Shown piece by piece: positions 5,232 through 23,554 of a DNA stretch of 64,000 bases (the first letter of the stretch is position 1; each line of letters opens with the position of its first letter). The DNA comes from an uncultured Myxococcales bacterium (GTDB lineage Bacteria; Myxococcota; Kuafuiibacteriia; Kuafuiibacteriales; Kuafuiibacteriaceae). The stretch covers positions 34,063 to 98,062 of the forward strand of contig CAYXDO010000014.1 of NCBI GenBank assembly GCA_964463485.1, given 5' to 3'. A program made the translations under genes and the position numbers. The notes below the pieces were generated by a model that saw only the letters and a list, made by a program, of their open reading frames with translations, did not search any database and was not told the DNA's origin.

Positions 5232-7283
5232 TCAGTCCACGGTGATCGATTTGCTCACGTTCTTCGGGACATCCGGATGTACGCCGTGCCCGCGCAACCC
5301 GAGGGCGTCGAGGTGACTCGCCTTCTTCGTGCTCATCTCGAGCGCGAGCAACTGCAACACGACCGTCGCAGAGAACATGGCCGAGAGAGTGTCTCCGGTC
5401 CGCGGGAGCTCGATGAATTGGGACACGTACCGCGGGTTGTCGGCCGGTGGCTTGGTGGCGGCCTGGCGTAACGCGGCGTCGTCCTCGGCGATGACGATGG
5501 TCTTGGCTCCTCTGATCTTGTGAGTGTTCATTTGGGACACCGTCAAGTCCACATCTCGGACGTTCGGGCCAGTCACGTAAATCAGAGGATAGTCTGCATC
5601 CAAAGTCTCGAGCAAATCAGCACGGCGAGACGGATCGAAGCCAGGGACCGAGGCGTCGAAGAGTCCGTGCAAATTCTCGACCGCACCAGCCTCGACCGCT
5701 CGCGTCACGGCCTCGAAGAGTGCGCGGACTTGGTCGATGCCGTACACCGTACTCTTCCCAAGAATCGTGTTGGGTCCGTGTTTGAACTCGGAGGCTTCGA
5801 AGCCCTCGGTGTGATTGAGCACGACCTCGCGGATCTTGAGCGCACCTTCCTTGGCGATCGCGGCCATCCGAGTGGCCAGGATGTGAAGGCTCGGCGCCAT
5901 GAACAGAGCCGCGGCGGCGCGCTCGATGGCGGGCTTGGTTTCGCGCAGCGTGGTCTCGATGAGCACAGGGAGCCCGGCGAAGCGACGCCTGCGCTCGGAT
6001 AGTCCCAGGGCGATCGCAGCGCGGGTAGCCGGATCGACCGAAGGGTCCTCCGCGCGTTTTTCGGCGACGCGGAGCGCGAGGCCGTAGAAGACGGCCATCT
6101 GATTCAGGAAGCTCTTGGTGGCCGGCACGGCGATCTCGGGGCCGCATCGGAGCGGGATCACGAGCTCACTCTGTTCCTGACCTAGCGTAGAGCTCACGTT
6201 GTTCACGATCCCGACGCGGGTCACTTTCTTCCCTGACGCGGCGACCAAGGTCATCACGTCGACGAGATCCTTGGTCTCTCCGCTCTGCGACACTGCGACG
6301 ACCAGGTCGCCGTCCGCGAGGGTGTCCGCGTACTGACCGCGAAACTCACCGGGGAGCACGGGAAAGATCGGCGCCCTCGCGAGCTCATCGAAGAACAGCG
6401 CGCCGGCCTTGGCCGCGTGAAAGGAGCTCCCGCAAGAGACGACGTAGACATGACGGCCGCTCTGAATCGCGTGGAGGACGAGGTCCGCGAAGGAGCTCGC
6501 GGCTCGTTCGACCTCGAGGAGCTCGTCTTTGGCGAGCACCGCGTCGAACAAGATCAGCGGGACGCGGTCACCGGCGAGGGGCTCGAGCTCCGAAAAGCTC
6601 GGCGCGTCCGTGGACGACAGGGACTCGAGGAGGGGCGCCGTTCGGAGCGCGGTCTTCGTCGCCTCGGGCAACCCATCGAGAATTCCGCGCACGGAGGGCG
6701 CTCCGACGAGCTCCGCGAGCGCCGCGCGAGCGCCCGCTTCGCCCTGCGCGTCGATGAGTGCGTCGACGCGAGGCCGCAGCTCGTCGAGCGTGCGCTCGTC
6801 GAGCGCCGCGGAGAACGTTCTCAGCGCGTCGGACCCGCCAGAGAACGAGGTCACGACGTCACGGACAGTCTTCACCTGCGCATGGATCTCTTGCTCCATG
6901 AAGGTGCGAAAGCCCGGCAACAAGACGGTGTCGCGCGCTCGCAACCTGCTCTTCTTGGGCGATTTCTCGACGCGACCGCCGGCCGCGACACTCCCCTTGG
7001 CTCTGACCGCGTACACTGCCCAAGCCGCGCCGTCGTGCTCGACGAAATCACCCTCCGAAATCGGAACGACCAAGCGAGTTAGTTTGAGCACCGACGACAG
7101 ATCGGAAGAAGCCAGCGTGAAGCTCCGACCTTGCTCATCCTTCCCGAAACCGAAATACAGCGAGGAGCCCAGCTTGATCGCCCAAGAGGCGCGAGAGACG
7201 GGATCGACCACGACCGCCGCGAAAGATCCCTTGAGCATCGCCGCCGCGTCCACGATCGCCGCACGCATCGCCGCGCGCCGATC
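5232..7283 (-). pseudogene. glmS 3'-fragment (aa ~152-835 of the intact copy at 21503-24010). Lacks the N-terminal Ntn-glutamine amidotransferase domain and catalytic Cys1. Read-through N-terminus (to 7445) is non-homologous junk.
   Basis: 100 % nucleotide identity over 2052 bp with 21503-23554 (constant ORF offset of 16271 for all six frames). Identity starts exactly at the stop codon and ends inside the GATase-coding region. Confidence 0.8.
5232..7283. repeat. Left copy of 2052-bp perfect direct repeat (DR-L)
   Basis: Boundaries mapped by hand: 5231 t vs 21502 c (differ), 5232=21503 onward identical, 7283=23554 last identical base, 7284 t vs 23555 c. Confidence 0.9.
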
Positions 7284-7290
7284 TCGCGCC

Positions 7291-7372: not shown

Positions 7373-7650
7373 GACTCTTGGTGCGAACCCTTCTGCTTGG
7401 CAGCCAGTGCTTGCACCGAGGATTCGAAGAGCGGAGCCCAGCCACGATCTTGGCTTCGGAGAATCAGTCGACTCACCGTCGGCTCCTCGCCTCCCGTGGG
7501 CAGCGGAGGGAGAGCGTCGTTTCGGACCTTCCTCGTGGTGCAGAGCATAATTAATAAGTAGGAGCATCCCGGTCGAGATCGATCTCGGCGACCCGAGCTC
7601 GGCCCGACTCGATCTCACCAGTGCCCGAGCTCGATCTCAAGCCGACGATA

Positions 7651-7680
7651 TCAGAGTCCGGGACTTGCCCGGACTCAGAG
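7651..7680. promoter_or_regulatory. Near-perfect inverted repeat tcagagtccggg-acttg-cccggactcagag, with an unusual AT-rich patch ataattaataagta at 7547-7560, upstream of the first insert gene
   Basis: Stem gagtccggg / cccggactc with a 5-nt loop. The AT-rich 14-mer is exceptional in this ~66 % GC DNA. Lies 65-200 bp upstream of the 7746 start, which has an AAGGAG-like RBS (gaaggag) 8 nt upstream. Confidence 0.3.
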
Positions 7681-7745
7681 GGCGACGCTACTCATAACGA
7701 GTCGAATTCGACACATTAGTCGAGATCGAAGAAGGAGCACCCGAA

Positions 7746-9149
7746 ATGAACCCGGTCCCAATCGTTGCGTTGGTCGCCCTGATCCACGCTACCTCGCCCT
7801 CCCCCGCTACGTCCCCGCCTTTGATCGCTCGTCAGGAGTTTGACGGGAGTCGCCCGCTCGAAGCCAGAGCTCAGCTTGGTCCGAACCGAGGCCGCCTCGT
7901 GATCTCCGGCGGCCAGCTCGCACAAGTCCTCCCCGGACCCGGCATCCGCGAGCGCTTCTGCTTCGACGCGCTTCCCGGCGATCGGCACGCTGCCCTGCGG
8001 ATGAATCTCGCCAGCGGCGCCGCCGCGGAGTTGTTCATCCAATACGACGATCCGAGCTCTTTCGTCAGCGTCGTCGCTTTCGCGTCCGGCGCCGGTCGAA
8101 TCGTCACGCGCACCGCGGGCGGCGACACGATCGTCGCCAACTTCTCCACGGGCATCGTGCGGAACTTGTGGTCGCGAATGCGAGTCGAGGCCAGTCAGAT
8201 CGACCTCGGTAACTCCGAGATCCTGATCTCGATCGATGGCGCGCCGATCGCTTCCGCGGTGGTTCCGCGAGCGATTGAAGGGTCTGCGGTGTGTTATGGC
8301 GTGCGCGGACAAGCGCGCCTAGCGTGGACCGCGCTTTGGGGCTGTGCTGCGGGTGAGATGTTCACAGAAGCTTCGTGCCAGGCACGCGAAGCCAACAGGT
8401 GCGCCGACGGGGTGACCACGAGCTCCGAGGAGTGCGACGACGGCAACACCTCAGACGGTGACGGTTGCTCCGCTGTCTGCACGGCTGAGTTCTGCGGCGA
8501 CGCGCTCCTCTCCGGCGTCGAAGAGTGCGACGACGGCAACACCTCAGCCGGTGACGGTTGCTCCGCCGTCTGCACGATCGAGTCATGCGGTGACTCGATC
8601 CTCACGGGCACCGAAGAGTGCGACGACGGCAACACCGCAGGCGGTGACGGTTGCTCCTCCCTTTGCAGGATCGAGCCCACTGTCTTGTACTCTCAGCCCT
8701 TTGACGCTCCGAACTTCGTGGAAGGGATCGTGGGCTCGCAGGCGTTGTTCGACGGCGCTTCGTGGCTCGACATGGGCGGCGGATCGCAGCTCTACCACTC
8801 CAACTCGGGCCGACCGAGCTCAGGCTCCATGTCCGTTCGCAAGAGCTTCATCTCTTCGTGGTCCGGAGCCCTCGTCTACTCGATTCCGGCTCCGGCTCGG
8901 TCCGACGAAGTCCTTCGCGTTCGGTTCTGGATTTACAGCGCGCTCGGCTCGTTCGACCTCGGCGTGAACCGTGCCGGTGGTGCCACCGTCACTCGAACGA
9001 TTCCGATGGGCGGTTGGACGCTCGTCGACGCCCAGCTCTTGAGCAGCCTCGACACGAGTGAGGCCTACATTCTGTTGGGCGCCATGCCGCCTGACCCGTC
9101 TGGTTGGAGCGTGAAGGTCGACACGATCATCGTCGAGCTCACCCCGTAG
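7746..9149 (+). CDS. Secreted protein with three myxobacterial cysteine-rich repeats (TIGR02232-like: ECDDGNTxxGDGCSxxCxxExCGD)
   Basis: Three ~20-aa Cys-rich repeats (8390-8690 at DNA level, ~60-bp period). Hydrophobic N-terminus. RBS-like gaaggag upstream of the ATG. Confidence 0.7.
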   Translation: MNPVPIVALVALIHATSPSPATSPPLIARQEFDGSRPLEARAQLGPNRGRLVISGGQLAQVLPGPGIRERFCFDALPGDRHAALRMNLASGAAAELFIQYDDPSSFVSVVAFASGAGRIVTRTAGGDTIVANFSTGIVRNLWSRMRVEASQIDLGNSEILISIDGAPIASAVVPRAIEGSAVCYGVRGQARLAWTALWGCAAGEMFTEASCQAREANRCADGVTTSSEECDDGNTSDGDGCSAVCTAEFCGDALLSGVEECDDGNTSAGDGCSAVCTIESCGDSILTGTEECDDGNTAGGDGCSSLCRIEPTVLYSQPFDAPNFVEGIVGSQALFDGASWLDMGGGSQLYHSNSGRPSSGSMSVRKSFISSWSGALVYSIPAPARSDEVLRVRFWIYSALGSFDLGVNRAGGATVTRTIPMGGWTLVDAQLLSSLDTSEAYILLGAMPPDPSGWSVKVDTIIVELTP

Positions 9150-9653
9150 CCGCCAATCGTCGACACGTAGCCGTCGACGAATCATGCCTTCGGCCGCCCT
9201 GCCGCGGGACTACTCGCGGCGCTGCCAAGGGCTACCCGACTCCGACCTACCCACGTCGACCCCAATCGGGTTCGTTCTCGACGAGCCGACTTCAAACTCA
9301 TCCAGACGTTTGCGTCGAACGCGTTTGTACTCATCAACTCGCACGCCGCATTCTTGCCTCATGAATACTGCCCCCCGCCGCCAAGTCGTCCGAGCGTTAC
9401 ATCGATTGGGCTTCAACGCCACGAAAGGAAACGGAAGCGGCCACACTGTGTTCGTAGACCTCTGCGGTCGAAAAGTCCAAGCGGTCGTTCGCTCGAAGAA
9501 GACTCACCACGTCGAGGCCACGGCGCGGAGCCTGGAGCACTTCGGTGTCTGCACCAGGCGGGAGTTCTTCGAATTGGTGCGGCGATCGTGAAGAATTTGT
9601 CGATCGTGTGGGACTCACGCGGAGGCTCGGCGCACCTTGACTCCGCGCCAGCC

Positions 9654-11165
9654 ATGGCAGAGCCTGCGTCCATGACGGGTGCGGATCTGGCTTGGCAGTC
9701 CACCATGGAGCGAATTCGGGACGTCACGGCGACTCAGAGTCACGTCACCTTTTTCGGAGAGCCCGGAAGTGGCCGCAAATTCGCCGCGACAACCCTCTGC
9801 GCCGAAATTCGGACAACTGACTCGGGCGCCAGCTTTCGATTCCTCGAGTGCCGCGGCCTCGCGGTCCAGGCGGCAACGGAAGCGCTCGCGGCCGGTGGCG
9901 AGCTCGTCGTGCTCGTGTTGGCTCACGCCGACGAGCTGCGCGAAGAGCCCGCGAGCGTGATCCTGTCACGGCTGGGTACGCTCGAGCTGGAGCCGACGGC
10001 CCGGCCGAAACTTCGCGTTGTTGCGACGGTTTCGAAGCTTGATCAGGGCCCCCTCTCGACGCTCGAGACTGTCGAAGTTGCCACGCCGAGCCTGGCCCAG
10101 CGAGAGGATCAGAGCTTCGACACGATCCGCAAGTACTGGCAGCTTTTTGGCGGTCAGGGCTCGAGCCCCTCACTGGCAGAGCTCCGATCGGGCAACTTAC
10201 GCGAGCTGAAGGTTCGGGCACGTCGGAGCCAAGACGCACCGACTCAGAGTCAGGCCGCCCGATCCGAAGGGCTAGATTCGCATCCGGCTACTCCTGCCGA
10301 GCGCTCCGTCGATTTGGAAGTCGCGGCACCGCTACGGGCCCTCCTTACCGGACCTCCTCGAGGGCAGCTACTCACCGATTGGTTCCGCGAAGGCAACCAC
10401 TCGAAAACGCCAATCGGTGTCCTCAACGGTCTCTTTAGGAAAGGCCCAGGCAAAACGGATCATTCGCTGTTGAAGCAATGCGTCGCAGAACAGGCCAAGC
10501 TCATCATGGACCGAAACGGGGGCCTCGATCCGTCACGACCCCTGGACCGACACCTCTTGCTTGGGCAACTGTTCGACAACTGGCCGACGTTTCGTCCTGG
10601 TGCGGACGGAGACATACGTGTTGGTTTCCTCATCTCCGAGGCGAGAGAGAGAAGGGAGGCGCGCGAGCTTTTGGCGCAAATTCCGGAGCTGATGAACGTC
10701 TTTCCTGAGTTGGCCCAACTCTACGGCTTCGTACCAACCGAGGTCGATTCCACAGACTATGATGACCCCGCAAAACTCGCAAAACTGTTGAAGAAGAGCG
10801 TCGACGGACTCGAGAAGATCGGATATCACGTGCATCAGAAGCGCGGCGACGCGGAGTACCCGACCCTCGAACACGACGCACTGTCAGCAATCGGCACAAT
10901 GTTGTCCAAAGGTGGCAACCTAGGCGCCCACTCGAACCTGCTCACAGATCATGAGATGAAAAGCGTCAATTTCGAATCTACTGAAGCCGGCTATCATCTC
11001 GCATGCAGCGAAGGCGAGGGCAAGCCGTGCGTCTTCGTCGTCCGCGCCGACTCGCTACCGGTTGCGAAGAAGTCGATGTTCTGGGTGCCACTCATCGTTC
11101 TCGTTCGAAAGACGGCCTTGCGTCGTGGCTCTATACCGGCCATGGATCAACTCCGCTTGCCATGA
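9654..11165 (+). CDS. Degenerate sigma-54-activator-like AAA+ domain protein (pseudo-bEBP), gene A of the insert operon
   Basis: Residues after MAEPASM align with a bEBP AAA+ core. HVTFFGEPGSGRKF matches VLVTGESGTGKE but with K->R at the Walker A lysine position. LVVLVLAHADEL matches TLFLDEIGDMSL with DE->AH. The GAFTGA loop is absent. VEVATPSLAQREDQSF matches I.lPPLReRxeDI. Listed ORF begins at 9354, but the first ~100 codons look like leader, so 9654 ATG is chosen (uncertain). Stop overlaps gene B start (ATGA at 11162-11165). Confidence 0.6.
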   Translation: MAEPASMTGADLAWQSTMERIRDVTATQSHVTFFGEPGSGRKFAATTLCAEIRTTDSGASFRFLECRGLAVQAATEALAAGGELVVLVLAHADELREEPASVILSRLGTLELEPTARPKLRVVATVSKLDQGPLSTLETVEVATPSLAQREDQSFDTIRKYWQLFGGQGSSPSLAELRSGNLRELKVRARRSQDAPTQSQAARSEGLDSHPATPAERSVDLEVAAPLRALLTGPPRGQLLTDWFREGNHSKTPIGVLNGLFRKGPGKTDHSLLKQCVAEQAKLIMDRNGGLDPSRPLDRHLLLGQLFDNWPTFRPGADGDIRVGFLISEARERREARELLAQIPELMNVFPELAQLYGFVPTEVDSTDYDDPAKLAKLLKKSVDGLEKIGYHVHQKRGDAEYPTLEHDALSAIGTMLSKGGNLGAHSNLLTDHEMKSVNFESTEAGYHLACSEGEGKPCVFVVRADSLPVAKKSMFWVPLIVLVRKTALRRGSIPAMDQLRLP

Positions 11166-14100
11166 CCGAGTCTCTCGAGCGTCAAGGCCTCGGGGGCCGC
11201 TCCGCCGAGGCAAATTGGCTGACTCACAAGCTCGGTCGCGCTCCCATCGTTTGGGTGACTGGCCCACGCGGTATCGGAAAAACGACGATCGTGGAGCTCA
11301 CGCTCCAGGCAGCGACCGGTGCGCACTGGATCTTCCTGGACGCGCGACATTTCACCAGGGCAGACGCGAAGGTCGAGCGTGCCTCGCTCCTCGAGGCGCT
11401 CGCCACGGCTGTACTCACCGAGCTCGAACAGCAAGTACATCTTCCTCCGGCCGCCTGGGCCGCGGACGGTCGTTGGAGGGCCTTCGTCGATCACGCGCTT
11501 CCGTGCCTTGGCAGCGCGACCTGGGTCTTCGCTCTGGACGAGACGGATGTTTGGTCCTCAAACGTTCTCGTCGAGGTTACGGCCGCGCTGCGAGGCGTCG
11601 CCAATCGGCTCCGGTACCCGAGTCGAGCGATGACATGGATTCTGATTCGAGGGGATCGTTGGGGTGAGGATCGGGCGGATCTCCCGCGTATGGCGGATCC
11701 CGTGCTCGAGGTCGGGCCGCTCGACTCGAGCGCGATCGTCGCGGTCTGTGCGAAGCTTGCGGACCAGGGAAAGAATGCGTCTGCCGAGGCTCTCGCACTC
11801 ATCGAGCAACTCACAGCTGGCTATCCGCTCGCCTTGGCCGCACTCGTCGAAGCGCTGAAGACCGTTGAGCCAGATGAATCCGGACAGGAAATCTGGCCGT
11901 ACCCACCTTCGTCTCTCCAACCGTGGGGAGTATGGCGGGCGCTCGAGCGCCTCGAGGCGCAGGCGATGGGTCACGGTTCTGCGTTGTCGAGGGGCGAGAG
12001 CTTCGAACGGATGGAACACGCGCTGCTCCAGGCCGATCCTCCGGCGCGCAAAATGCTTTTGACCGTCGCGACCGTCGAGCAGCTCGAGTGGACGGAGATT
12101 TCGCTCTTGGAGGCGCTCGAACGAGCTTGGCCGGAAGAGCTATGGAACAATCCGGAAAGTGTCTCCCTCTTCGAGTCCACACTCCGAGGACTCGTACGGA
12201 CTCACATGCTGGTGCGCGTCGGCGTCGATGGCGCGCGCCACGTCGTGCCGATGCTCGCGAGATTTTGTCTCGCGCTCGGGACTGCCAAAATTCGGGCCTG
12301 GGAGAGACCGCACCTTCACGAGGTTGACCTCTTGCTCCAAGAGGTCAACACCGCGACGACTGACGAGACGAGGACGGAGTTGCTCCGACGGGCGCTGGAC
12401 GCCGACGATAGTGATCCCCGGGCCCTCCTCGCTCTCGCGAGGATTTGTGCACGTGGTTCGGAGTCGACTCAAGCCGAGTCGTTGGGTGAGGCGCGGCGAC
12501 TCTATTCGCGGGCACTGCGGGTGCTGCCCCAGCGAGCGTCCGAGCGGCGAGGTGTCGAGAGCGAGCTGCTGCACGTGCTCCAGCGGCTCGTCGCAGCGGG
12601 CGCTCCGGAGGATGCGATCGGAGAGTTGGCGAGAGGTGATCCGTATTTTGCGGACGACTCTCGAACGGCGAGAGCGCTGCATTTGTGGCTCGAGCGGCGC
12701 TGGTCCCAGGCGTGGGAGACTCCTCCGCCCAAGGAGATCGACCTCGCCTCATCGCGGCATCGATGGGAACAGCGAGCGGAGGGTCTCTTCGTTACTCTCC
12801 CTGGACATCGAGAGTTCGTCGCCAGAGCCCTTGGGTCGCACCTGGCCACTTGGCCCAGCCCGGATCTCGAGTGGCTGAACGCGCTGCTGGCGATCATGCC
12901 CGATCTTCCGGCTGTCGACCTCGATCGAGCGCCTTCTCCCGTGCTGTGGTCGATGCTCTATTCGGCGTGGAACACTCGAGACCGACTGTTCACGCCGGCT
13001 GCGCATGCACTTTCGTCCAAGGACTGGCTTGCGTTGGTCCGCTGGTGTCCGGGCTCGGGCCCGGCCATCTCGGTGCTGACCCAGTATCTCGCCGAAACTG
13101 TCTCCGCACTGGGAGGGGCCGACGCCCTCGAATTCGGGCCGCTCCTTCTGTGGCTTAGGGAGCGCGACAAACCAATGGGCGACGCGGCCGTTTCCCATGT
13201 GCTCCGCTCGCTCAAGCGCCCTGCCGTCGGGCCTGTGAGTCGAGACGCGGTCCGGGCGTGGCGCGAGCTCGCTCCAGACCTCGAGCTGACCTCCCACGAT
13301 ACCGCCGATCAATTCAAGAAGACCTTCATCTCCGGTTGGCGCCAAATCAGCGAACCCGAGAAGCTGGACGGCGTGGAACATCGGTTGATCGAGCGCGACT
13401 CCGGACCCGAGCCACGTCCGCGAGCCCTCCATCGACTGTTTCCCTCTCAACAAGGGCTTGAGCTCGACTTGGCCGAGGCTTCGTTTGCACGTGAGCAGCG
13501 CCTGCTTGAATGGCTTGGCGACTCGCGAGTGAACGCGGTTCCTCGCCTCCTCGATACCGGCTCGTTGGTCGACGACTCTAACAACAAACTCGGCTTCTAC
13601 TCGGTCGTGTCCGAGCCTGCATCGGAGCGCGAGGCGACCTCGCTGCGCACGCTCATCCGAAGACAAACCTCGAACGGCCGCAGTGTGGCCAGCCTCAGCC
13701 GAAGCTCCTTCTGGCACATGATCGCCTCGCTCTTCGAGGCTTTGAGCCACATGCACCAGAGGGCCGTGTTTCATCGATCCGCGCGGCCCGACTACGTCCG
13801 TGTGAGTCTTCCCGAAGATCCGAAGCGCGAGCCCTGGCGGGTGACCTTGATCGGCATGGAATGGAGCTATTACCTCCGGAACCCAACGGGTATGGGTGCC
13901 TATCCGCGTCGACGCCTGGACTACTCGCTCGCCCCAGAGACTCTTTCAGCTCCGTACGGCGAGACTTTCGGCACCGACCTCTTTTCGATGGGCGTACTCA
14001 TCGCTGAATGCCTCGCGTCCGATCGGCTCGACCTCGGCCCGTTCGCTGAAGGTGAGTACAGCCGCGCAACCCAGATCAGGCACATAGAAGCTTGGCTGAG

Positions 14101-16867
14101 CAAGCTCGAGCACGAATCGAGCTCGGTCCGCGCCTTCGTGCGCTGGCTCCTGTCCATCGAGCCAAAGGACCGCCCCAGCGCCGCCGTCGCCCGCCTCGAG
14201 GCCCAACGCCAAGCCCTCGACCCCAAAGAGCTCGGAGCCTTACCGATTTTCGCGCACCTCGGAGGCTCAGATCCCCTGGCGAGCAGCGCGACGCTTCCTC
14301 ACTGGCTGCGCGACCGTGCCGAGTGGATCGACCAGATCCCCTTCGACGAGCCCAACACCTGGCGGAGACTCTTCCGCAGACAACTCTGCCAGGAGCTTGC
14401 AGGCGCCTCCATTTTTGTGAACTCGATCGGCCTCGCCCAGCGAGCTCTCGATGGTCCCGAGGCCCCCGAAAAATGGCCCTTGTTTCTGATGAGCAAGAGC
14501 GGCCTGGAATTCCGGCTGGGAAAGGCGTCCCTCGAGCTCGAAGGCGAGCCCCGCAGGCAGAGAGAGTCGGGGGCGTTTCTCGAGGTCGCGCGCCGATTTG
14601 AGGGCGACTCTCCCTTTGGTCCTCCCATCGGACAGCTCCCAGAAGCCGGTGACATCCGGTTTTTCGCGATAGACGAGGTCGACTCGCTCCAAGGAGTCGA
14701 CAGTGAGTCGTATGAGATTCTCCGAAGCCGTGATCGTGGCTGGGCGCCGCTGTTCGAGTCCGCCGAGCAAGCACTGAAGGCCGAGCAGACCGAGACTTCG
14801 ATCGTGCAGAGGCGACTGGCCCTCCATGCCATGCTCAACCTCGCCAACGAAGCCGAGTACGAGCTCGTCGGAGGAGAAATCGAATACGTTCGAGTAGAGG
14901 ACCCTGCTTTCCCGAACATGCTCCTCGTTCGTGAGCCATCGGCGGCAAGTGCGTCCGCCTCGAGCGCGCCCAGCCCCCTCCAGCGTATTTTCGCCGCTTG
15001 GACCGATGTGGATCCCGTGGTGGAGGTGGCCTCCAAACAGGGCGCGCGAGCCATCACCGAGATTCCTTTTCCCGACCCATCCCTCGCCATCGGACCCAAT
15101 GGCACCGTGGCCCTCGCTGGCATGAAGTTCGGCCTGAGTCCGGCACGGTGGAGCCTGATACCGCCTATGGGCGTGCTGCGAAGCCCGGTCGCCGAGTTGG
15201 CGCTGAGCTTGTTTCGCCGACGCCGTCGGGTCCTACGAGAGCTGCTCGACCAGCCGAACGTCCTCGATGCGTTGGCCGATCCCACAAACTCGTCCCGCGT
15301 GGTGCCTGGCTTGCGAAAACCGTTCGAGTATCCAGGTCTCGACGACGACAAGAAAGCCTGTCTGCGGCAAATGGACGAAGTCCGGCCCCTGCTGGCCGTA
15401 CGCGGGCCTCCCGGTACCGGCAAGACTCAGCTAAGCCTGGCCACTCTCCATCGCGAGCTGAATCGAAATCCCCACGCCCGAATCGCTGTGGTCGCGCCTA
15501 CTCACGACGCTCTCGATCACTTGCTCGAGAGCTTTCTGGCCTCCTCGGATCGGGGACCGGCTTTCGAGAGGCGAGTTTTGTCCGCGACCGTCGTCCGGAT
15601 TCCTTCTGGCAAGCGTCCTCTCGACCAATATCCTGCGACCGTCAAAACCAAGTTACCCTCGGTGCAGGCGGAGGAGCTTTACCGCAGGCTGCGAGGCTGG
15701 ATCGACGGATCTCGAGCTCGACCTCACTCACCCGCCGGGCAACTCGCCTCCGCGGTCGAGGCGGAGTTGAAGCTCCTCGGCGGCACCAGCGAAGATCCGA
15801 CCAGCGGGCTGGCCGCCTGGTTGGCTGACTCGGCGAACGTCCTGTTGGCGACGGCCAACTCCGGTCCCATTGCGCGAGTTGCGCCTGACAGCTTCGACCT
15901 CTTGATCGCAGAGGAGTCCGGAAAATGTGGAGCCGTCGAGCTCGCCGGAGCCATGCGTGTCGCGCCGAGGTGGCTCATGATCGGTGACGAGCGCCAACTC
16001 CCGGCCTTTGGCCTTCAAGACGTCGAGGACAAAGTCTTCGACTCGATCAACGCGGCGTCGGAGGCAGGGTCGAGCCAGATACCTTCTCCGGTCGATACGT
16101 TGAACCTGTTCGGTCACGTCATTGCGCAGGAGGGGCCCCACACGCAAACGCTCACACACGCTTGGCGATTCCATCCAAAGCTCCTTGCCGTCGTCGCTTC
16201 GTTCTATGATGACAAAGCGACACTCATCCCCGGCGACGTCGACCTAGCCAGGAGGAAGACTCATGAGCTCCGTGCTTCTCGTCTTGGCAAGAATCTGAAG
16301 GATAATCTGAAGGATAAGCAGCTCGTCTGGGTCGATTTCGAAAACAGTGAGGCCTATCGGGAGCGCCGGGAGCTGGGCGGGGGAATTCACAATGAAGCCG
16401 AACGCCGAGCGATCGTAGGCTTCCTACGTGCCCTGGACGCACGGTGCGCCCAGCCTCGACTCACGGTGTTATCGTTCTACAAGCGACAGGTCGAGCACCT
16501 TCGAGGATTGCTCGCAAACCAGGTGAATACCTTCGATGTCTTTGGAAAGCGCGGGATTGAAGACTTCGTGTCGACGGTCGACTCCTTTCAGGGTCGCCAA
16601 GCCCCGGTCGTCTTGCTGAGTATGTGCCGCAACAACACCGAAACCGAGGCCTCACGACGTTTTGGGTTCCTGACGGACCGACGACGCGGAAACGTGGCCT
16701 TCTCGAGGGCGGAGAGTCTTCTCGTGATCTTCGGATGCCGCGCCCATTTCGCGGAGCTGAAGTGGGTCAAAGACCAAGTTCTGAGTCGGGTCCAGCTCTT
16801 CCTCAAGGCCTCGGATATCTTGAGTGATTCCGAGACATCCAAGCTCATGGAGAGCGTCGGGCCGTGA
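11162..16867 (+). CDS. Giant (1901 aa) multidomain protein: N-terminal STAND/AAA-type P-loop NTPase + helical/TPR-like region + degenerate Ser/Thr protein-kinase-like domain (pseudokinase) + C-terminal Upf1-like SF1 helicase (COG1112-type). Gene B.
   Basis: Walker A VWVTGPRGIGKTTIVEL and Walker B WVFALDETDVW. Kinase-like segment HMHQRAVFHRSARPDYVRV (HRD->HRS), TLIGMEWS (DFG->LIG), YSLAPETL (APE), DLFSMGVLIAECL, EPKDRPS, with no VAIK Lys. Helicase motifs LAVRGPPGTGKTQ (I), VLLATANSG, FDLLIAEESGKCG (II-like), WLMIGDERQLPAF (III), VDSFQGRQAPVVLLS (V), NVAFSRAESLLVIFG (VI). Start chosen at ATG 11162 overlapping the gene A stop (listed ORF starts upstream at 11003 inside gene A). Confidence 0.85.
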   Translation: MTESLERQGLGGRSAEANWLTHKLGRAPIVWVTGPRGIGKTTIVELTLQAATGAHWIFLDARHFTRADAKVERASLLEALATAVLTELEQQVHLPPAAWAADGRWRAFVDHALPCLGSATWVFALDETDVWSSNVLVEVTAALRGVANRLRYPSRAMTWILIRGDRWGEDRADLPRMADPVLEVGPLDSSAIVAVCAKLADQGKNASAEALALIEQLTAGYPLALAALVEALKTVEPDESGQEIWPYPPSSLQPWGVWRALERLEAQAMGHGSALSRGESFERMEHALLQADPPARKMLLTVATVEQLEWTEISLLEALERAWPEELWNNPESVSLFESTLRGLVRTHMLVRVGVDGARHVVPMLARFCLALGTAKIRAWERPHLHEVDLLLQEVNTATTDETRTELLRRALDADDSDPRALLALARICARGSESTQAESLGEARRLYSRALRVLPQRASERRGVESELLHVLQRLVAAGAPEDAIGELARGDPYFADDSRTARALHLWLERRWSQAWETPPPKEIDLASSRHRWEQRAEGLFVTLPGHREFVARALGSHLATWPSPDLEWLNALLAIMPDLPAVDLDRAPSPVLWSMLYSAWNTRDRLFTPAAHALSSKDWLALVRWCPGSGPAISVLTQYLAETVSALGGADALEFGPLLLWLRERDKPMGDAAVSHVLRSLKRPAVGPVSRDAVRAWRELAPDLELTSHDTADQFKKTFISGWRQISEPEKLDGVEHRLIERDSGPEPRPRALHRLFPSQQGLELDLAEASFAREQRLLEWLGDSRVNAVPRLLDTGSLVDDSNNKLGFYSVVSEPASEREATSLRTLIRRQTSNGRSVASLSRSSFWHMIASLFEALSHMHQRAVFHRSARPDYVRVSLPEDPKREPWRVTLIGMEWSYYLRNPTGMGAYPRRRLDYSLAPETLSAPYGETFGTDLFSMGVLIAECLASDRLDLGPFAEGEYSRATQIRHIEAWLSKLEHESSSVRAFVRWLLSIEPKDRPSAAVARLEAQRQALDPKELGALPIFAHLGGSDPLASSATLPHWLRDRAEWIDQIPFDEPNTWRRLFRRQLCQELAGASIFVNSIGLAQRALDGPEAPEKWPLFLMSKSGLEFRLGKASLELEGEPRRQRESGAFLEVARRFEGDSPFGPPIGQLPEAGDIRFFAIDEVDSLQGVDSESYEILRSRDRGWAPLFESAEQALKAEQTETSIVQRRLALHAMLNLANEAEYELVGGEIEYVRVEDPAFPNMLLVREPSAASASASSAPSPLQRIFAAWTDVDPVVEVASKQGARAITEIPFPDPSLAIGPNGTVALAGMKFGLSPARWSLIPPMGVLRSPVAELALSLFRRRRRVLRELLDQPNVLDALADPTNSSRVVPGLRKPFEYPGLDDDKKACLRQMDEVRPLLAVRGPPGTGKTQLSLATLHRELNRNPHARIAVVAPTHDALDHLLESFLASSDRGPAFERRVLSATVVRIPSGKRPLDQYPATVKTKLPSVQAEELYRRLRGWIDGSRARPHSPAGQLASAVEAELKLLGGTSEDPTSGLAAWLADSANVLLATANSGPIARVAPDSFDLLIAEESGKCGAVELAGAMRVAPRWLMIGDERQLPAFGLQDVEDKVFDSINAASEAGSSQIPSPVDTLNLFGHVIAQEGPHTQTLTHAWRFHPKLLAVVASFYDDKATLIPGDVDLARRKTHELRASRLGKNLKDNLKDKQLVWVDFENSEAYRERRELGGGIHNEAERRAIVGFLRALDARCAQPRLTVLSFYKRQVEHLRGLLANQVNTFDVFGKRGIEDFVSTVDSFQGRQAPVVLLSMCRNNTETEASRRFGFLTDRRRGNVAFSRAESLLVIFGCRAHFAELKWVKDQVLSRVQLFLKASDILSDSETSKLMESVGP

Positions 16868-18987
16868 CCGAGGAGCGCTCCGAGGACGGTCGACGAACGC
16901 TCTACGCTCGGGGCAGAGTCTATCGTCTGACCCTGTCGGGGCGCGTCCAGGAATCATGGCTGGAACGCGCGATCCTGGCGGCCTGCGCGCAAACCAAACT
17001 CACTCTGTCGGACCTGCTGTCCGCCGCGCGTCTCGACCACCGGGCCCCGAAGAGAGTCCCGCTACCCGAGGGTCTGTTCGTCGACGCCGTGGCGAAGCTG
17101 TTGGAGCGAGGACGACTGTCCGTGAAGCCTTCCGACGGAAGCCTCTGCGTAGGCGGTACGCCGTCCCCGGAGCTCGACGCTGCGAACTCTGTCGACGTCG
17201 AGGTCTGGCGAGACGACGCCACGGGTACCATCTGGCCGCTCGACTCGGTTGGGGCTCCGAGGGTCCGCACGGCGGCATCCAGGGACCAAATCCGAAGGAG
17301 CGGACCGGTGCTCGGCGTCGATCTTATGAGGGCCTCGAGCGCCCGAATCATCGAAGAGCTCCGGCTTCGAATGCCCGGCGCAGTACCCGACGTCGCGTCG
17401 GAGGTACTCGGGCGCCAAATGGCCCAGCAGTTTGAGTTTCTCAAGATCGAGGCCGTCGAACGCGAGGACGGCCGCTTGGCCGTGACCTCGCTCGTTCCGT
17501 GGCGCTTGCGCGCCGCCTGGGCCCGAGTTTCCCTGCCCGGAATCGAGCTTGCCCCACGAGATTCGATCCGCGTCGAAGCGACCCCGGAGCCCCCTAGCTG
17601 GAATCGCTCCTTCGATCGGTGGGTCGCGGCGATCGATAGCAACGAGGAAACCGGTCCCGCTCAGAGCGAGCTGCTGAGTCTTTTGGATCGTCGCCTATAT
17701 CCCCGACTCGTGCGGTCCACCGACATATTCGAGAGTGTACCCTCGACGCGCCACCAGACTTACATGGGAGCCGGCCCGAACTCTGCCGGGCACCTCCGTG
17801 CGCTCATGAAGGAGGTCCCCGCTGGGCTAGCCATCAAAGTGGACTCGACGGAGGCCTTTGTCGCTGTCGATTCCCACACCCTTTTTCTCGGGGGCTCCTT
17901 CAATCCCCAGCACAAAGGAAGCCATAGCTTCAAAGTCATGGGCTGGGTCGCCGTCACCGCCTTTCTGCGGGCCGCAATCGGCGAAGAAGTCGCTATCTCT
18001 TCCGAGCCCGACTCACCGACCGTCTCGCGCCTCCGTAACGCGATCGACGGCGCGGCTCGCTCGATGGACCCCGAGCTCGCGCGCCGTGTACCCATCGAGG
18101 TCGACGTCGGCCACCCGGTCATTTGGCTGAGCACCGACGACGCCGAGTTTCTCGCGGCCTCCATCGAGTGGACGATCATTGCCCTCTCTCCCAAGCTCGA
18201 CCGCCCCCCCGCGTGGATTCGAAATGCCTCCGGCGAGCCTACCGTCGGCCTCTACTGCACCACCCCAACCGAGCCGACGAGCCCACCAGACGTGTGGATC
18301 TCGAACACTGGCGGCTGGGTCTTGGTGGGCTACTGGTCGATCGGATATTTCGGCTGCAGGCAATCGGCCGAGCTCGGCTCCACTCTTCGAGACATGATCG
18401 GTGACTGGGAGCTTCAGGCTCTGGAGACGGATGCGCCAACCGTCGCTCCCAGCCCTCCAAACCACAATCCGTCCCCACTGTCGAAACCTGTCCCGCCGAT
18501 CGGAGCTCCGAAGCCGACGCCGACAAACGAACCCAATCCACCGAATGCGCCCTCTCCCCTGCAATCGGACGTGACGAGTTCGAAGGCACCAGTGGCCAAG
18601 GCACCCGGGGCTCCTTCAGTCGCACCTGGACCTGAAAATATTGTCAGATCGATACTCGCTCAGCTCGGCCAGACGCCCGTCGAAGGGGACTGGCAGCTCG
18701 AGTACGATAGACTCTTCAAAGCCATAGGCAAGCTCGACTTCGTCTCGAAGAACGACCGTGGCGCAAAGCTCTTGGTCGCCCTGCTCGCTGCTCGAGTCAA
18801 CGCGCTCCAAGAAGGTTGGCCAAAGCCCTTGCCCAACCTCATCAAAGCCCTGATCGGGTTCACGAAGAAGACTCAAATTGGACTCATCCATGGACTCAGC
18901 AGGCAACACACGAGTCAATCATGGCTCGAGGAAGCCCACAGCGCTGAGCAGGCGCTGGTCGAGCTCTTCGAGCCCAAGGGGCCTTAG
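16864..18987 (+). CDS. Hypothetical 707-aa protein, gene C of the operon. Globular N-terminal ~480 aa, Pro-rich linker (PSPPNHNPSPLSKPVPPIGAPKPTPTNEPNPPNAPSP), C-terminal ~110-aa helical domain.
   Basis: GTG start at 16864 overlapping the gene B stop (GTGA). Good coding GC3. No recognisable catalytic motif; HxKx4D PLD, PD-(D/E)xK and HNH were looked for and not found. Confidence 0.7.
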   Translation: MTEERSEDGRRTLYARGRVYRLTLSGRVQESWLERAILAACAQTKLTLSDLLSAARLDHRAPKRVPLPEGLFVDAVAKLLERGRLSVKPSDGSLCVGGTPSPELDAANSVDVEVWRDDATGTIWPLDSVGAPRVRTAASRDQIRRSGPVLGVDLMRASSARIIEELRLRMPGAVPDVASEVLGRQMAQQFEFLKIEAVEREDGRLAVTSLVPWRLRAAWARVSLPGIELAPRDSIRVEATPEPPSWNRSFDRWVAAIDSNEETGPAQSELLSLLDRRLYPRLVRSTDIFESVPSTRHQTYMGAGPNSAGHLRALMKEVPAGLAIKVDSTEAFVAVDSHTLFLGGSFNPQHKGSHSFKVMGWVAVTAFLRAAIGEEVAISSEPDSPTVSRLRNAIDGAARSMDPELARRVPIEVDVGHPVIWLSTDDAEFLAASIEWTIIALSPKLDRPPAWIRNASGEPTVGLYCTTPTEPTSPPDVWISNTGGWVLVGYWSIGYFGCRQSAELGSTLRDMIGDWELQALETDAPTVAPSPPNHNPSPLSKPVPPIGAPKPTPTNEPNPPNAPSPLQSDVTSSKAPVAKAPGAPSVAPGPENIVRSILAQLGQTPVEGDWQLEYDRLFKAIGKLDFVSKNDRGAKLLVALLAARVNALQEGWPKPLPNLIKALIGFTKKTQIGLIHGLSRQHTSQSWLEEAHSAEQALVELFEPKGP

Positions 18988-20095
18988 AGGTCGTTTCGTC
19001 GTCGCGATTCCATGCTCACGGATGGATACGCTGATCCCCCGCTCTGGGAATCGCAAGAGGTATCAACAATCTCGCGCGGCTAGTCTAGGGCCCGCATCGC
19101 GCAACTGATTTCGCGGCCGGAGCCCAGATCCTGGGCGCCGGATCGTCGTTGGTGTCATGTCGCGTCGGCGGTCGCGACCGCGTGGGTGATTGCTTCGGTG
19201 CGGACGAGGAGACTGTGGGCGGAGCATTGGTATCTCAAGGTCGTCCTCACGAAGTCGGTGGCCGAGGTCGCCGGCACGCCGGCCGAAGACCTGACACGTT
19301 CTTTGGTCGAACTTGAGATAGGAAGCTCCTGGATTTCGACGAGACCCAGGTGACGAGAGTTCGGGTCTCGGAGGGTGCGACATTTCTCAAGTTCGAAAAG
19401 AACGCGGCCGACGAGTGGGGGGCCACGCTCGCCCACACTAGGCAAGCCCAAAGGCTACAAGCTCGACGGAATCATCGACACGGTTCCGACCGTGCGAGCG
19501 ACTCGATACGACACTAACGATCCGGCCGCGGAGCTTCGACCCGCGACGAAATCAGTGGCACATTACGGGCCCAAGGGATTGCTTGGCACGCTGTTGGTAG
19601 GTCGTTCATGGAAAGTGGTGAACGTGCTGACGTTTGCGATGGTCGAGGGGCGAAGAAGGTAGCCGTGGTGGAGACCTCGGCGGTGGACTCGATCCCCGAC
19701 GAACTCGGGGAGCTACTCGACGGCAAGTGGGAAACCGACTTCCGCGCGTCGCCGAGATCGATCTCGGTGCCAGCCCGAGACCCGCCAATGTCAACTTCGC
19801 AGGCGCCGAGCTTCGGGGACTCGGGGTCGGTCGGGTTGACCGATCTCGACGGAATCTCTATTCATTTTCGACGCCGCCGTTCGTAACGGGACGCGGCCAT
19901 CGCTCCGAGATTAATCTCACTGCAATTCAAGTCATCTCTGACTTCGATCTCGGCTGGTGTAATCTCCGTCGCCGCTATTTACGGGGTGTGTTGGGCTGGG
20001 CTTGAATCGGGCGGCTCGATAAAACGTCGGGCAAGGAGGCCGTCTGTGACAAAAATTGGATTGATAAGCACGCTGGTCGTGCGGGAGGTACACCG

Positions 20096-21097
20096 ATGAT
20101 CGCGAACCACATGATGAAGGAGAAAGTCTCCGCCGAGGGGAGCCTTCGCAGGCTCTTCAGAAACCTCGTGGTGGCAGCGCTGCTGATTGGCGTGGCGTGC
20201 GGTGGTATCGAGCAAGACGGTGACGAGGAGGTCGGTGAGTCCAAGGAGGCCCTCGTGGCGGGTCTCTACTGTGGCGACGGCAGCGCCGGTCGACCCACGC
20301 GCGGCACTCTCTACCGATACAACGGCGCCACGTTCTCCGTGGATCGGGTCTGCGGCGGCGCGGGGACGTGCGGCGTCAACGCTGCCGGCGTGAACGACGC
20401 TTGCGTCACGAACTCATCCGTCCTCGAGAACGCCATCGCCAACGCAGCCCGCAGCGTTCACGGCTCAAACGCTCCGGTGGCGGCTCCGGCGTCGTTGGTG
20501 AGCGCCAACCCGGCGGCTACGTGGCTCACCGACGTGTCCGGTTTGGCGGGAGCGCAGGTCCGCGCGGCGATCTTGGACTACAGCCGCTTCATGGGTTCGG
20601 CGACGAACCAGCCGCCGTCGGCCAGTGTGCGGGCGTCGATGGTCGCTCGCCTCACGAGCTTCAACGCCGTCGACCGAGATGCCGTCGTGAATCGAATCGT
20701 AGCGCGCTACGCTCGCACCGTGCCGACCACTGACCAGCAGACTCTCGATTTCTTGGGAGTTCGGACGCAGTGCAAGGAGTTCGCCGACCGCATGGTGCGC
20801 CTCGGCGGCGGGACGTCGGCGACGTACGCGTCGTACTTGACGAGGAAGGTCAGCCGACACAGCGAGTTCCGACGGGGGCTCGTGGCGGTCAAGGGCACCA
20901 ACGCCCACGCCGGAATCATCACCGCCGTGACGCGGGACGCCACCGGAAACATCACGGGGATCGAGTTGACGGAGACAAATTGGGGCACCGGTTGGAATAG
21001 CCCGATCGGGCAGGTGCCTTGGAGCCGAGTGATCGCGAAGCGAACCCTCACGGTCGCCCAGTTCACCGCGGCGTACTCGGCCACGCGAAACCAATAG
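20096..21097 (+). CDS. Putative lipoprotein/secreted protein of unknown function (possible Cys/His papain-like or NlpC/P60-like fold, speculative)
   Basis: N-terminal LLIGVACGG signal/lipobox-like sequence. AT-richer promoter-like region 19900-20095 with aaggagg RBS upstream. Candidate Cys (TQCKEF) and His (NAHAGIITAV) but no confident family assignment. Confidence 0.55.
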   Translation: MIANHMMKEKVSAEGSLRRLFRNLVVAALLIGVACGGIEQDGDEEVGESKEALVAGLYCGDGSAGRPTRGTLYRYNGATFSVDRVCGGAGTCGVNAAGVNDACVTNSSVLENAIANAARSVHGSNAPVAAPASLVSANPAATWLTDVSGLAGAQVRAAILDYSRFMGSATNQPPSASVRASMVARLTSFNAVDRDAVVNRIVARYARTVPTTDQQTLDFLGVRTQCKEFADRMVRLGGGTSATYASYLTRKVSRHSEFRRGLVAVKGTNAHAGIITAVTRDATGNITGIELTETNWGTGWNSPIGQVPWSRVIAKRTLTVAQFTAAYSATRNQ

Positions 21098-21315
21098 GTC
21101 CTACCTTCGGCCCTCCGGGTCCTCTCCTCTCCTCTCCCGACGAGGCGTCCGAGATCGAACCCATCCGCACCGGCCCCCAGTGGCCGCGATAGTGAAGGTC
21201 ATGATGTGGGGTCAACAACCCGAAGGCGCCGAGCATCGTCCGATCCCGAGTCGTCCGCAAACATGCCCGCTCGGTTCGACAGCACCGTCACCACGAGCTC
21301 CCACCCGCCAGGTCG

Positions 21316-21502: not shown

Positions 21503-23554
21503 TCAGTCCACGGTGATCGATTTGCTCACGTTCTTCGGGACATCCGGATGTACGCCGTGCCCGCGCAACCCGAGGGCGTCGAGGTGACTCGCCTTCTTCG
21601 TGCTCATCTCGAGCGCGAGCAACTGCAACACGACCGTCGCAGAGAACATGGCCGAGAGAGTGTCTCCGGTCCGCGGGAGCTCGATGAATTGGGACACGTA
21701 CCGCGGGTTGTCGGCCGGTGGCTTGGTGGCGGCCTGGCGTAACGCGGCGTCGTCCTCGGCGATGACGATGGTCTTGGCTCCTCTGATCTTGTGAGTGTTC
21801 ATTTGGGACACCGTCAAGTCCACATCTCGGACGTTCGGGCCAGTCACGTAAATCAGAGGATAGTCTGCATCCAAAGTCTCGAGCAAATCAGCACGGCGAG
21901 ACGGATCGAAGCCAGGGACCGAGGCGTCGAAGAGTCCGTGCAAATTCTCGACCGCACCAGCCTCGACCGCTCGCGTCACGGCCTCGAAGAGTGCGCGGAC
22001 TTGGTCGATGCCGTACACCGTACTCTTCCCAAGAATCGTGTTGGGTCCGTGTTTGAACTCGGAGGCTTCGAAGCCCTCGGTGTGATTGAGCACGACCTCG
22101 CGGATCTTGAGCGCACCTTCCTTGGCGATCGCGGCCATCCGAGTGGCCAGGATGTGAAGGCTCGGCGCCATGAACAGAGCCGCGGCGGCGCGCTCGATGG
22201 CGGGCTTGGTTTCGCGCAGCGTGGTCTCGATGAGCACAGGGAGCCCGGCGAAGCGACGCCTGCGCTCGGATAGTCCCAGGGCGATCGCAGCGCGGGTAGC
22301 CGGATCGACCGAAGGGTCCTCCGCGCGTTTTTCGGCGACGCGGAGCGCGAGGCCGTAGAAGACGGCCATCTGATTCAGGAAGCTCTTGGTGGCCGGCACG
22401 GCGATCTCGGGGCCGCATCGGAGCGGGATCACGAGCTCACTCTGTTCCTGACCTAGCGTAGAGCTCACGTTGTTCACGATCCCGACGCGGGTCACTTTCT
22501 TCCCTGACGCGGCGACCAAGGTCATCACGTCGACGAGATCCTTGGTCTCTCCGCTCTGCGACACTGCGACGACCAGGTCGCCGTCCGCGAGGGTGTCCGC
22601 GTACTGACCGCGAAACTCACCGGGGAGCACGGGAAAGATCGGCGCCCTCGCGAGCTCATCGAAGAACAGCGCGCCGGCCTTGGCCGCGTGAAAGGAGCTC
22701 CCGCAAGAGACGACGTAGACATGACGGCCGCTCTGAATCGCGTGGAGGACGAGGTCCGCGAAGGAGCTCGCGGCTCGTTCGACCTCGAGGAGCTCGTCTT
22801 TGGCGAGCACCGCGTCGAACAAGATCAGCGGGACGCGGTCACCGGCGAGGGGCTCGAGCTCCGAAAAGCTCGGCGCGTCCGTGGACGACAGGGACTCGAG
22901 GAGGGGCGCCGTTCGGAGCGCGGTCTTCGTCGCCTCGGGCAACCCATCGAGAATTCCGCGCACGGAGGGCGCTCCGACGAGCTCCGCGAGCGCCGCGCGA
23001 GCGCCCGCTTCGCCCTGCGCGTCGATGAGTGCGTCGACGCGAGGCCGCAGCTCGTCGAGCGTGCGCTCGTCGAGCGCCGCGGAGAACGTTCTCAGCGCGT
23101 CGGACCCGCCAGAGAACGAGGTCACGACGTCACGGACAGTCTTCACCTGCGCATGGATCTCTTGCTCCATGAAGGTGCGAAAGCCCGGCAACAAGACGGT
23201 GTCGCGCGCTCGCAACCTGCTCTTCTTGGGCGATTTCTCGACGCGACCGCCGGCCGCGACACTCCCCTTGGCTCTGACCGCGTACACTGCCCAAGCCGCG
23301 CCGTCGTGCTCGACGAAATCACCCTCCGAAATCGGAACGACCAAGCGAGTTAGTTTGAGCACCGACGACAGATCGGAAGAAGCCAGCGTGAAGCTCCGAC
23401 CTTGCTCATCCTTCCCGAAACCGAAATACAGCGAGGAGCCCAGCTTGATCGCCCAAGAGGCGCGAGAGACGGGATCGACCACGACCGCCGCGAAAGATCC
23501 CTTGAGCATCGCCGCCGCGTCCACGATCGCCGCACGCATCGCCGCGCGCCGATC
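21503..23554. repeat. Right copy of 2052-bp perfect direct repeat (DR-R), part of intact glmS
   Basis: See DR-L. Offset 16271 bp. Confidence 0.9.

Follow-up and report, generated by a model that had tools for sequence, protein, structure and literature searches.

A three-gene operon in a myxobacterial contig

We analyzed a stretch of 64,000 nucleotides (the window) from contig CAYXDO010000014.1 of an uncultured Myxococcales bacterium, in which three adjacent genes, here called A, B and C, form an operon related to the type I Mokosh anti-phage system (MkoA plus MkoB). All three are intact open reading frames (ORFs) on the plus strand, at positions 9654-11165 (A), 11162-16867 (B) and 16864-18987 (C); the open frames themselves extend over 9354..11165 (with ATG 9654 in frame), 11003..16867 and 16864..18987. 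The earlier note on this DNA, made from the sequence alone, had described the genes as chained by start-stop overlaps, and both overlaps can be read directly. The A/B junction is gccATGAcc (11162-11165) and the B/C junction is gccGTGAcc (16864-16867), each a 4-nt overlap, and a GGAG lies about 10 nt 5' of the GTG start of C. Because B is stop-free over 5.7 kb and a trio with identical 4-nt overlaps occurs in an unrelated metagenome, the operon is well beyond what is expected by chance.

Public gene calls match these ORFs for B (P0002, 1901 aa) and C (P0001, 707 aa). For A they differ: GTG 9588 was called in Logan (525 aa) and ATG 9672 by NCBI (497 aa), and the start given in the earlier note was ATG 9654 (503 aa). 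The start of A is therefore uncertain.

Gene B joins a STAND NTPase to a full-length MkoA module

In the protein of gene B, a STAND NTPase is joined to an MkoA module, itself made of a pseudokinase and a Upf1-like superfamily 1 (SF1) helicase. This is the domain composition proposed from the sequence alone, and Pfam matches and motif checks agree with it. The first 751 residues (11162..13414, plus strand) comprise a STAND-type P-loop NTPase followed by a helical region without a Pfam match. The N-terminus matches AAA_16 with 45 bits (cut-off 32.6) and nSTAND6 with 32.5 bits (cut-off 27.7), and it has the two motifs expected of a STAND P-loop NTPase, both intact: Walker A (GPRGIGKT, aa 34-41) and Walker B (ALDE, around aa 124-127). 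There is no N-terminal effector, because the NTPase begins at about residue 10, and no repeat family of Pfam was matched between aa 115 and 750; the tripartite layout of Avs proteins (N-terminal effector, NTPase and TPR/WD40/LRR sensor) is not found in B. Canonical MkoA lacks this N-terminal module of ~750 aa. Homologous N-termini occur in two other B-like proteins, P0003 (E 8e-12) and the one encoded at locus L004 (E 2e-12), and a tblastn search of plasmids with the module returned no relevant relative.

The region that follows, aa 752-1880 (13415..16801, plus strand), is homologous to MkoA and carries the Pfam domains AAA_11, AAA_12 and Pkinase. The PADLOC MkoA model PDLC03920 matches it with an E-value of 1.4e-125 (419 bits) over model positions 32-1090 of 1112. 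This match also spans the linker between kinase and helicase and is thus not confined to the generic domains. The likeness to MkoA that the earlier note had pointed out is therefore borne out, with the C-terminal 1130 aa of B giving a full-length match. For reference, a genuine type I Mokosh pair from a Rhizobium etli plasmid scores 894 bits (MkoA) and 313 bits (MkoB) on the PADLOC models. The PADLOC model of MkoC, the type II protein, matches B over the helicase C-terminus only (50 bits).

The helicase occupies aa 1393-1859 (AAA_11, 57 bits; AAA_12, 99 bits), and the top sequence matches of B in the PDB are Upf1/NAM7 and IGHMBP2. Its motifs are readily located: I (GPPGTGKT, 1415-1422), II (EES, 1584-1586), III (GDERQLP, 1608-1614), V (TVDSFQG, 1805-1811) and VI (NVAFSRA, 1844-1850). 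B has, like MkoA of type I Mokosh, a COG1112/Upf1-like SF1 helicase whose ATP-binding motif is intact, and a kinase-like domain N-terminal to it, within a full-length match to the MkoA profile. As judged from the motifs, this helicase appears as intact as that of canonical MkoA.

The kinase-like segment (aa 844-1008) scores 30.1 bits against Pfam Pkinase, just below the cut-off of 31.7. HRS stands in place of HRD (871-873) and GME in place of DFG (898-900), while APE is kept. The MkoA of the R. etli plasmid pRetIE4803b (L007 4258-7830) reads HRN for HRD and GFEWS for DFG, and has EE in helicase motif II; in the alignment, the EE of motif II and an HRx pseudokinase motif are common to this protein and B. 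Since a canonical MkoA shows the same degeneration, the degenerate kinase is a trait of the family and not specific to B. The kinase of B is thus degenerate, as had been noted, but it is not special to this operon. Two candidate peculiarities of B, the degenerate kinase as a novelty and the EE of motif II as a defect, were rejected because canonical MkoA has both. As an observation on Mokosh itself, the 'STK' domain of at least the R. etli type I MkoA appears, from its motifs, to be a pseudokinase.

Gene C belongs to an MkoB-like family without HKD motifs

Gene C (16864..18987, plus strand, GTG start, 707 aa) encodes an MkoB-like protein without HKD catalytic motifs. There was no match to C in Pfam, PADLOC, NCBIfam or PHROGs, and word-index protein searches, whether made with C, B or the C-family alignment, gave back almost only the query. 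An exhaustive phmmer search of 1.84 billion representative proteins with C yielded eight weak relatives, one of which (P0009, a Cna_B protein) was rejected as spurious. Six, each of ~560 aa, can be aligned with C over their whole length, with 22-26% identity. Also among the eight is P0006 (1746 aa), a fusion of an MkoA-like protein (PDLC03920, 5e-158) with a C-terminus that is C-like. This C-like part weakly matches the PADLOC MkoB model PDLC03922 over positions 25-266 of 610 (E 5.4e-4).

In order to relate the two groups, we compared nine C-family proteins with nine canonical plasmid MkoB proteins (the protein of contig L002 was left out of one C-family alignment). With hhalign, the C family matches MkoB with an E-value of 1.6e-4 over the N-terminal ~125 residues, and with a greedier setting the match reaches an E-value of 7.2e-5 over 493 collinear columns. 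In reciprocal profile searches with hidden Markov models (HMMs), the C family and MkoB rank each other next after self, above ~394 background ORFs. The strands gaDFvlaDG..L.lGG and padCVIlD..VvllG of the C family align exactly onto the first and second HKD motifs of MkoB, which in hhalign read SHAKfliaDD..GSCNW and HAKvLgWDdD..SS.NW. At these sites the C family has G or P for the catalytic H and D for the K (A in motif 1 of C itself), and the motif Asp is kept. A motif scan gave the same picture: all nine MkoB proteins contain two HxKx4D motifs, and none of the nine C-family members contains one in its PLD region.

Three parts can be distinguished along C, all on the plus strand. The N-terminal domain (aa 10-260, 16891..17643) is common to the C family and MkoB and holds a winged-helix segment (WLERAIL...VPLPEGLFVDAVAKLLERG) together with VWRDDATG, REDGR and PWRLRAAWARV. 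The second part (aa ~290-510, 17731..18393) is the two-lobed PLD-like region, which has no HxK. Its degenerate motif 1 is FVAVDSHTLFLGGSFN (aa 332-347), with D336, G343 and G344 invariant in the C family, and its degenerate motif 2 is PPDVWISNTGGWVLVGYW (aa 474-491). The third part (aa ~511-707, 18394..18987) is a Pro-rich linker followed by a helical tail; it has no counterpart in the other family members in the alignment, and the helices come from a low-confidence model.

C therefore presents two of the features that mark the partner in type I Mokosh, namely the two-lobed PLD fold and, by remote homology, a position as MkoB partner next to mkoA; the HKD catalytic motif of type I Mokosh and of the PLD superfamily is missing. 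From these comparisons, C is best read as an MkoB homologue that would have kept the fold and lost the HKD chemistry. The earlier note had found no recognizable motif in C and had held that the partner is not a PLD nuclease. It was right that no HKD motif is there; what it did not see is that C belongs to a small family homologous to MkoB, which assigns the PLD fold.

One could instead regard the three genes as a wholly undescribed defence or signalling system, in which B resembles MkoA only through shared generic helicase and kinase domains. Such a reading would account for the missing Pfam, PADLOC, NCBIfam and PHROG matches of both A and C, and for the fact that rules requiring MkoB would not call Mokosh here. 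We nevertheless hold it to be very improbable and already largely refuted, because the MkoA match runs from end to end, kinase-helicase linker included, and because C is tied to MkoB by profiles, fold, domain order, gene position and a fusion protein that matches both models. The claim that the combination matches no described system is thus overturned. Given the MkoA profile match of B and the homology of the C family to MkoB, the operon is a derivative of type I Mokosh and not an unmatched system. In full, we consider it probable that it is a derivative of type I Mokosh in which a STAND module has been fused and the PLD is dead.

Relatives keep the pair and vary the first gene

The closest relative of B is P0003 (31% identity), which is encoded on a metagenomic contig (L002) with the same trio. 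There, a first gene (3-1514) that is cut by the contig end is followed by a gene for a 2023-aa STAND-MkoA protein and a C-like gene that overlaps it (E 4e-11 against C). At locus L004 the order is an HTH_3 gene, a gene for a 1981-aa STAND-MkoA protein and a C-like gene. The STAND modules of these three full-length B-type proteins are homologous, and every clade member for which the full, unfused protein is known carries the STAND NTPase. The fusion protein P0006 (L003 3528-8768) has no STAND domain, and its gene adjoins an upstream subtilase (Peptidase_S8) gene.

All C-family genes with recovered flanks lie directly 3' of an AAA_11/AAA_12 helicase gene and overlap it. In canonical plasmid pairs, mkoA and mkoB overlap by 17 nt in L007 and by 4 nt in the other eight. 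The clade thus keeps the MkoA-MkoB architecture, the coupling of the genes and even a fusion, and it is without HKD throughout. A is not constant, since L004 has an HTH_3 gene in its position. A co-occurrence of A, B and C therefore holds for L002 but not for L004: the core is the B-C pair, and the first gene is variable and regulatory-looking.

At L004, a tRNA-Asp (2591-2667) lies directly upstream of the HTH-STAND-MkoA-C cluster, and downstream of it (11918-17921) are convergent genes for an nSTAND1-TPR protein (1202 aa) and a SIR2-TIR protein (508 aa). By its gene content this locus looks like a tRNA-associated defence island. Neighbours at other C-family loci include RelA_SpoT and serine recombinase genes. 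Across the loci, GC content runs from 54 to 69%.

The clade is very rare, with ~10 loci among ~15 billion proteins. The nine sequences of the C alignment diverged too far for patterns to be designed from them. No relative emerged from two pattern scans of 185,579 species genomes or from one of viral sequences, and a scan of metagenomes added one short locus. A megablast search of plasmids and phages with the 14.2-kb insert that holds the operon gave no match.

Gene A and a small upstream ORF

Gene A (9654..11165, plus strand; alternative starts GTG 9588 and ATG 9672) has an N-terminal part of ~190 aa that is a degenerate AAA+ domain of the sigma-54-activator type, and a C-terminal part of ~300 aa without a detectable relative. 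Elements of bacterial enhancer-binding proteins (bEBPs) can be followed by eye in the usual order: GEPGSGRK (aa 35-42), HADEL (91-95), LRVVATVSKL, PSLAQRED and GNLRELK (180-186). No GAFTGA was found, the segment being deleted, and no arginine fingers; the Walker A motif, GxxGxGK in sigma-54 bEBPs, reads GSGRK. A matches Pfam Sigma54_activat at aa 9-66 with an E-value of 0.092 (12.9 bits, cut-off 20.2) and the lid region of a bEBP encoded in the same window with a BLASTP E-value of 0.061. There was no match in the PDB, PHROGs or NCBIfam and no significant match in PADLOC. The first gene of L002 has a clear bEBP lid (AAA_lid_14, 2e-18), with NtrC/RtcR-type matches and the motif FPGNVRELK. We base the assignment of A as a sigma-54-activator derivative on the two weak, collinear matches and on this equivalent gene; A may derive from the bEBP family but is not a functional member of it. 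The earlier note had described a sigma-54-derived AAA+ domain that lost its motifs. This agrees with the missing GAFTGA and, through weak matches, with the derivation, except that a Walker B-like HADEL is present.

We also considered a shared A-type effector domain in A and the first genes of L002 and L004. This candidate was dropped, as A shows no significant similarity to either: BLASTP finds only a shared GNLRELK motif, and hhalign of A against the C-terminal domains of the two proteins gives an E-value of 0.26. Separately, the C-terminal domains of the proteins encoded at L002 3-1514 and L004 3227-4081 are 22% identical over 175 aa (E 0.033), and these two proteins may share a domain that is not detectable in A.

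Directly upstream lies a small ORF (9361..9591, plus strand; 76 aa from ATG 9361), with uncertain membership in the operon. It matches Pfam HicA_toxin weakly (E 0.0092; 16.5 bits, below the cut-off of 27). No match was found in the PDB or PHROGs and no HicB-like neighbour, so that the features of a HicA toxin are not established here, and no counterpart was seen in L004. Its stop codon overlaps GTG 9588, one of the candidate starts of A. From this arrangement and the weak match, the ORF could be a further gene coupled to the three and might supply an RNase effector.

Genomic context

The operon lies in a segment of 14.2 kb bracketed by a direct repeat of 2052 bp, whose copies (5232-7283 and 21503-23554) are 100% identical, confirming the long perfect repeats reported earlier. 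The right copy (21503..23554) is inside a full-length glmS-like gene on the minus strand (21503-24010, 835 aa, GATase and SIS domains), and the repeat starts exactly at the TGA stop of this gene. The left copy (5232..7283) is the 3' part of a minus-strand glmS-like gene that is truncated at its 5' end and is without the GATase N-terminus. The pattern of a truncated left and a full right copy fits a recent insertion or duplication; recent insertion, duplication or an assembly effect may each have given rise to the repeat. An independent Logan contig corresponds to window positions 7254-21345 and ends in or near the repeats. No integrase or tRNA was found near the repeats.

Because three of its domains are without catalytic residues (the dead PLD, the dead kinase and the degenerate AAA+) and the segment looks recently inserted, the operon could also be a decaying, non-functional Mokosh remnant. 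The divergence of A and C, which in the window are the most divergent of their groups, points the same way, as does the GC content at third codon positions, which is lower in A, B and C (0.68-0.74) than in the flanking genes (0.76-0.83). All three ORFs are nevertheless intact, B is free of stops over its whole length, and the STAND and helicase motifs are kept. The HKD-less state is found in nine members that share only 22-46% identity and whose hosts have 54-69% GC, which indicates that the loss is old and maintained and not recent decay. A pseudokinase also occurs in a canonical plasmid MkoA that is paired with an HKD-intact MkoB. We therefore consider decay improbable.

The neighbours in the window encode a Na+/H+ exchanger, the glmS-like proteins, Ser/Thr kinases, FHA proteins, a bEBP, response regulators, MgtE and a TIGR02232 protein. 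An accessory or defence-island context, as had been suggested, is not supported by them, since the genes around the operon have regulatory and housekeeping functions that are ordinary for a myxobacterium. No further defence match besides the operon, and no integrase or tRNA, was found in the window. A wealth of Ser/Thr kinases, FHA proteins, bEBP and response regulators would suit a cellular, non-immune module for RNA surveillance or regulation, made up of a Upf1-like helicase and an RNA-binding partner, controlled by the STAND NTPase and serving myxobacterial development or stress signalling, and so would the missing nuclease active site and the regulator-like first gene (bEBP AAA+ or HTH). 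Such a module would not be expected to have a sparse and patchy distribution of ~10 loci, to be without a relative in pattern scans of species-representative genomes, or to adjoin SIR2-TIR/STAND, RelA_SpoT and recombinase genes and a tRNA in its relatives; moreover, the nearest family that has been characterised is one of anti-phage defence. A cellular role of this kind thus appears unlikely to us, about as much so as decay.

Several other features of the window were recorded. A gene at 7746-9149 (plus strand) encodes a Cys-rich acidic repeat protein (DUF4215 / TIGR02232 'myxo_disulf_rpt'), and three tandem DNA repeats of 93 bp, 75-80% identical, lie within it (8400-8678). The TIGR02232 protein points to a myxobacterial origin of the window. 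The palindrome TGTTCGAACA occurs in exact copies at 7291-7300 and 7311-7320, 20 bp apart, directly behind the left repeat copy and with the gene for the Cys-rich repeat protein downstream. Allowing one mismatch, it has 5 matches in the window versus 1.5 expected, and the pair may be a putative operator. Further internal tandem-like DNA repeats (72-90% identity) lie at 35570-36331, 53289-53628 and 54030-54302, the first of them inside a gene (33923-38119) for a 1398-aa response-regulator/DUF4388/HC2-like protein.

Strength of the assignment and a possible mechanism

Several points weigh against reading the operon as a Mokosh derivative that defends its host. The PADLOC MkoB model gives no match to C even at an E-value of 10, so that rules of the PADLOC type would not call the system. 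The link between the C family and MkoB would be weak if taken alone (10-14 bits in the reciprocal searches and an hhalign probability of 50-63%). C is also the most divergent member of its family (22-26% identity). Its AlphaFold model (pLDDT 49) was unusable and was left out of the fold search; the PLD fold of C is for this reason assigned through the family alignment. As the pattern scans of species genomes were empty, the census consists of about ten loci, mostly on short metagenomic contigs. The neighbours of the operon in the window are not defence genes, and defence by this clade is a prediction. Finally, the loss of residues that canonical Mokosh needs leaves a system without a known effector. 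The defence role proposed for the operon is plausible.

Type I Mokosh defence requires both the ATP site of the helicase and the PLD's active site (10.1101/2022.05.11.491447). Because both catalytic sites are lost from the nuclease-fold partner, the present system is predicted to be unable to work as ordinary Mokosh does. An HxKx4D motif is invariant among PLD enzymes, and pairs of a nuclease and an NTPase assemble into complexes (10.1101/2025.07.10.664194). By analogy with other nuclease-NTPase defence pairs, B and C would form a complex. Their target would be a nucleic acid, probably RNA of the phage or an RNA/DNA intermediate, engaged by the helicase and by the winged-helix/pseudo-PLD protein. 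Since C has no capacity for phosphohistidine (HKD) cleavage, the part of this subunit would be to bind or sense and not to act as an HKD nuclease. The STAND NTPase would turn recognition into NTP-dependent oligomerisation, leading to growth arrest or interference, and A would be derived from a sigma-54-activator AAA+ domain and have an accessory or regulatory role specific to its lineage. Candidates for the executor are the helicase, the C-terminal half of A, the small HicA-like ORF and a non-HKD site on the conserved Asp residues of C. As for the last, most C-family members have Asp in place of the catalytic Lys in both motifs, which might form a new active site. We offer this specific sensor-switch mechanism tentatively, as a minority possibility.

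More generally, the clade could provide nuclease-independent Mokosh immunity, in which the pseudo-PLD and the pseudokinase serve only as recognition surfaces, the fused STAND NTPase as an oligomerisation switch that responds when the helicase recognizes phage RNA, and the helicase or a non-HKD site on the PLD scaffold carries out killing or interference. We regard this idea as possible but doubtful. If true, such a mechanism would be one that has not yet been described for any helicase-PLD defence pair.

Comparison with known systems

The closest known system is type I Mokosh (Millman et al. 2022). The two-gene core, its order and the stop/start overlap are the same, as is the combination of an MkoA-type pseudokinase with a Upf1-like SF1 helicase, matched over the full length of the HMM. 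The partner has the same winged-helix N-terminus and two-lobed PLD fold, with a similar size and similar motif spacing (~350 and ~525). In contrast to type I Mokosh, B has an extra N-terminal STAND NTPase of ~750 aa, C lacks the H and K of both HKD motifs and fails the MkoB HMM, gene A is added upstream, and C of the window has a unique Pro-rich and helical tail. In type II Mokosh (MkoC), helicase and PLD are in one protein, and P0006 likewise holds both modules in one polypeptide, showing that the helicase and PLD-like parts work together. The window differs from type II in its separate genes and its HKD-less PLD-like part.

With Avs and other STAND antiviral NTPases, B shares an N-terminal P-loop NTPase with intact Walker A and B motifs and a long helical region after it, and one relative (L004) lies beside an nSTAND1-TPR and SIR2-TIR pair. 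Unlike them, B has neither an N-terminal effector nor recognizable TPR, WD40 or LRR repeats, and a whole MkoA is fused to it instead. The pairing of helicase and PLD in Mokosh mirrors MOV10L1 and Zucchini/PLD6 of the animal piRNA pathway, although Zucchini is an active HKD nuclease and no STAND domain, pseudokinase or operon is involved there. Non-catalytic PLD folds are found in TrmB/TrmBL2 (a winged helix with a PLD-like ligand-binding domain) and in FAM83 (DUF1669). No sequence relationship of these to C was detected, and they differ in function (sugar-responsive transcription factor, chromatin protein, kinase scaffold) and in genomic context.

Within the library of papers that was searched, no description of a STAND-MkoA fusion or of an HKD-less MkoB was found. 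The operon is not categorically new; what is new is the STAND-MkoA fusion together with an HKD-less partner of the MkoB type. Tools based on HMM rules miss such derivatives, as the partner protein falls under every model threshold. We know of no established mechanism for Mokosh. The clade represents a natural separation-of-function version of it, with the architecture kept, both PLD sites gone and a STAND switch added. If the clade still defends, the PLD-fold subunit would have a role other than cleavage (recognition, scaffolding or licensing), and such a role, if true, would redirect the study of canonical Mokosh.

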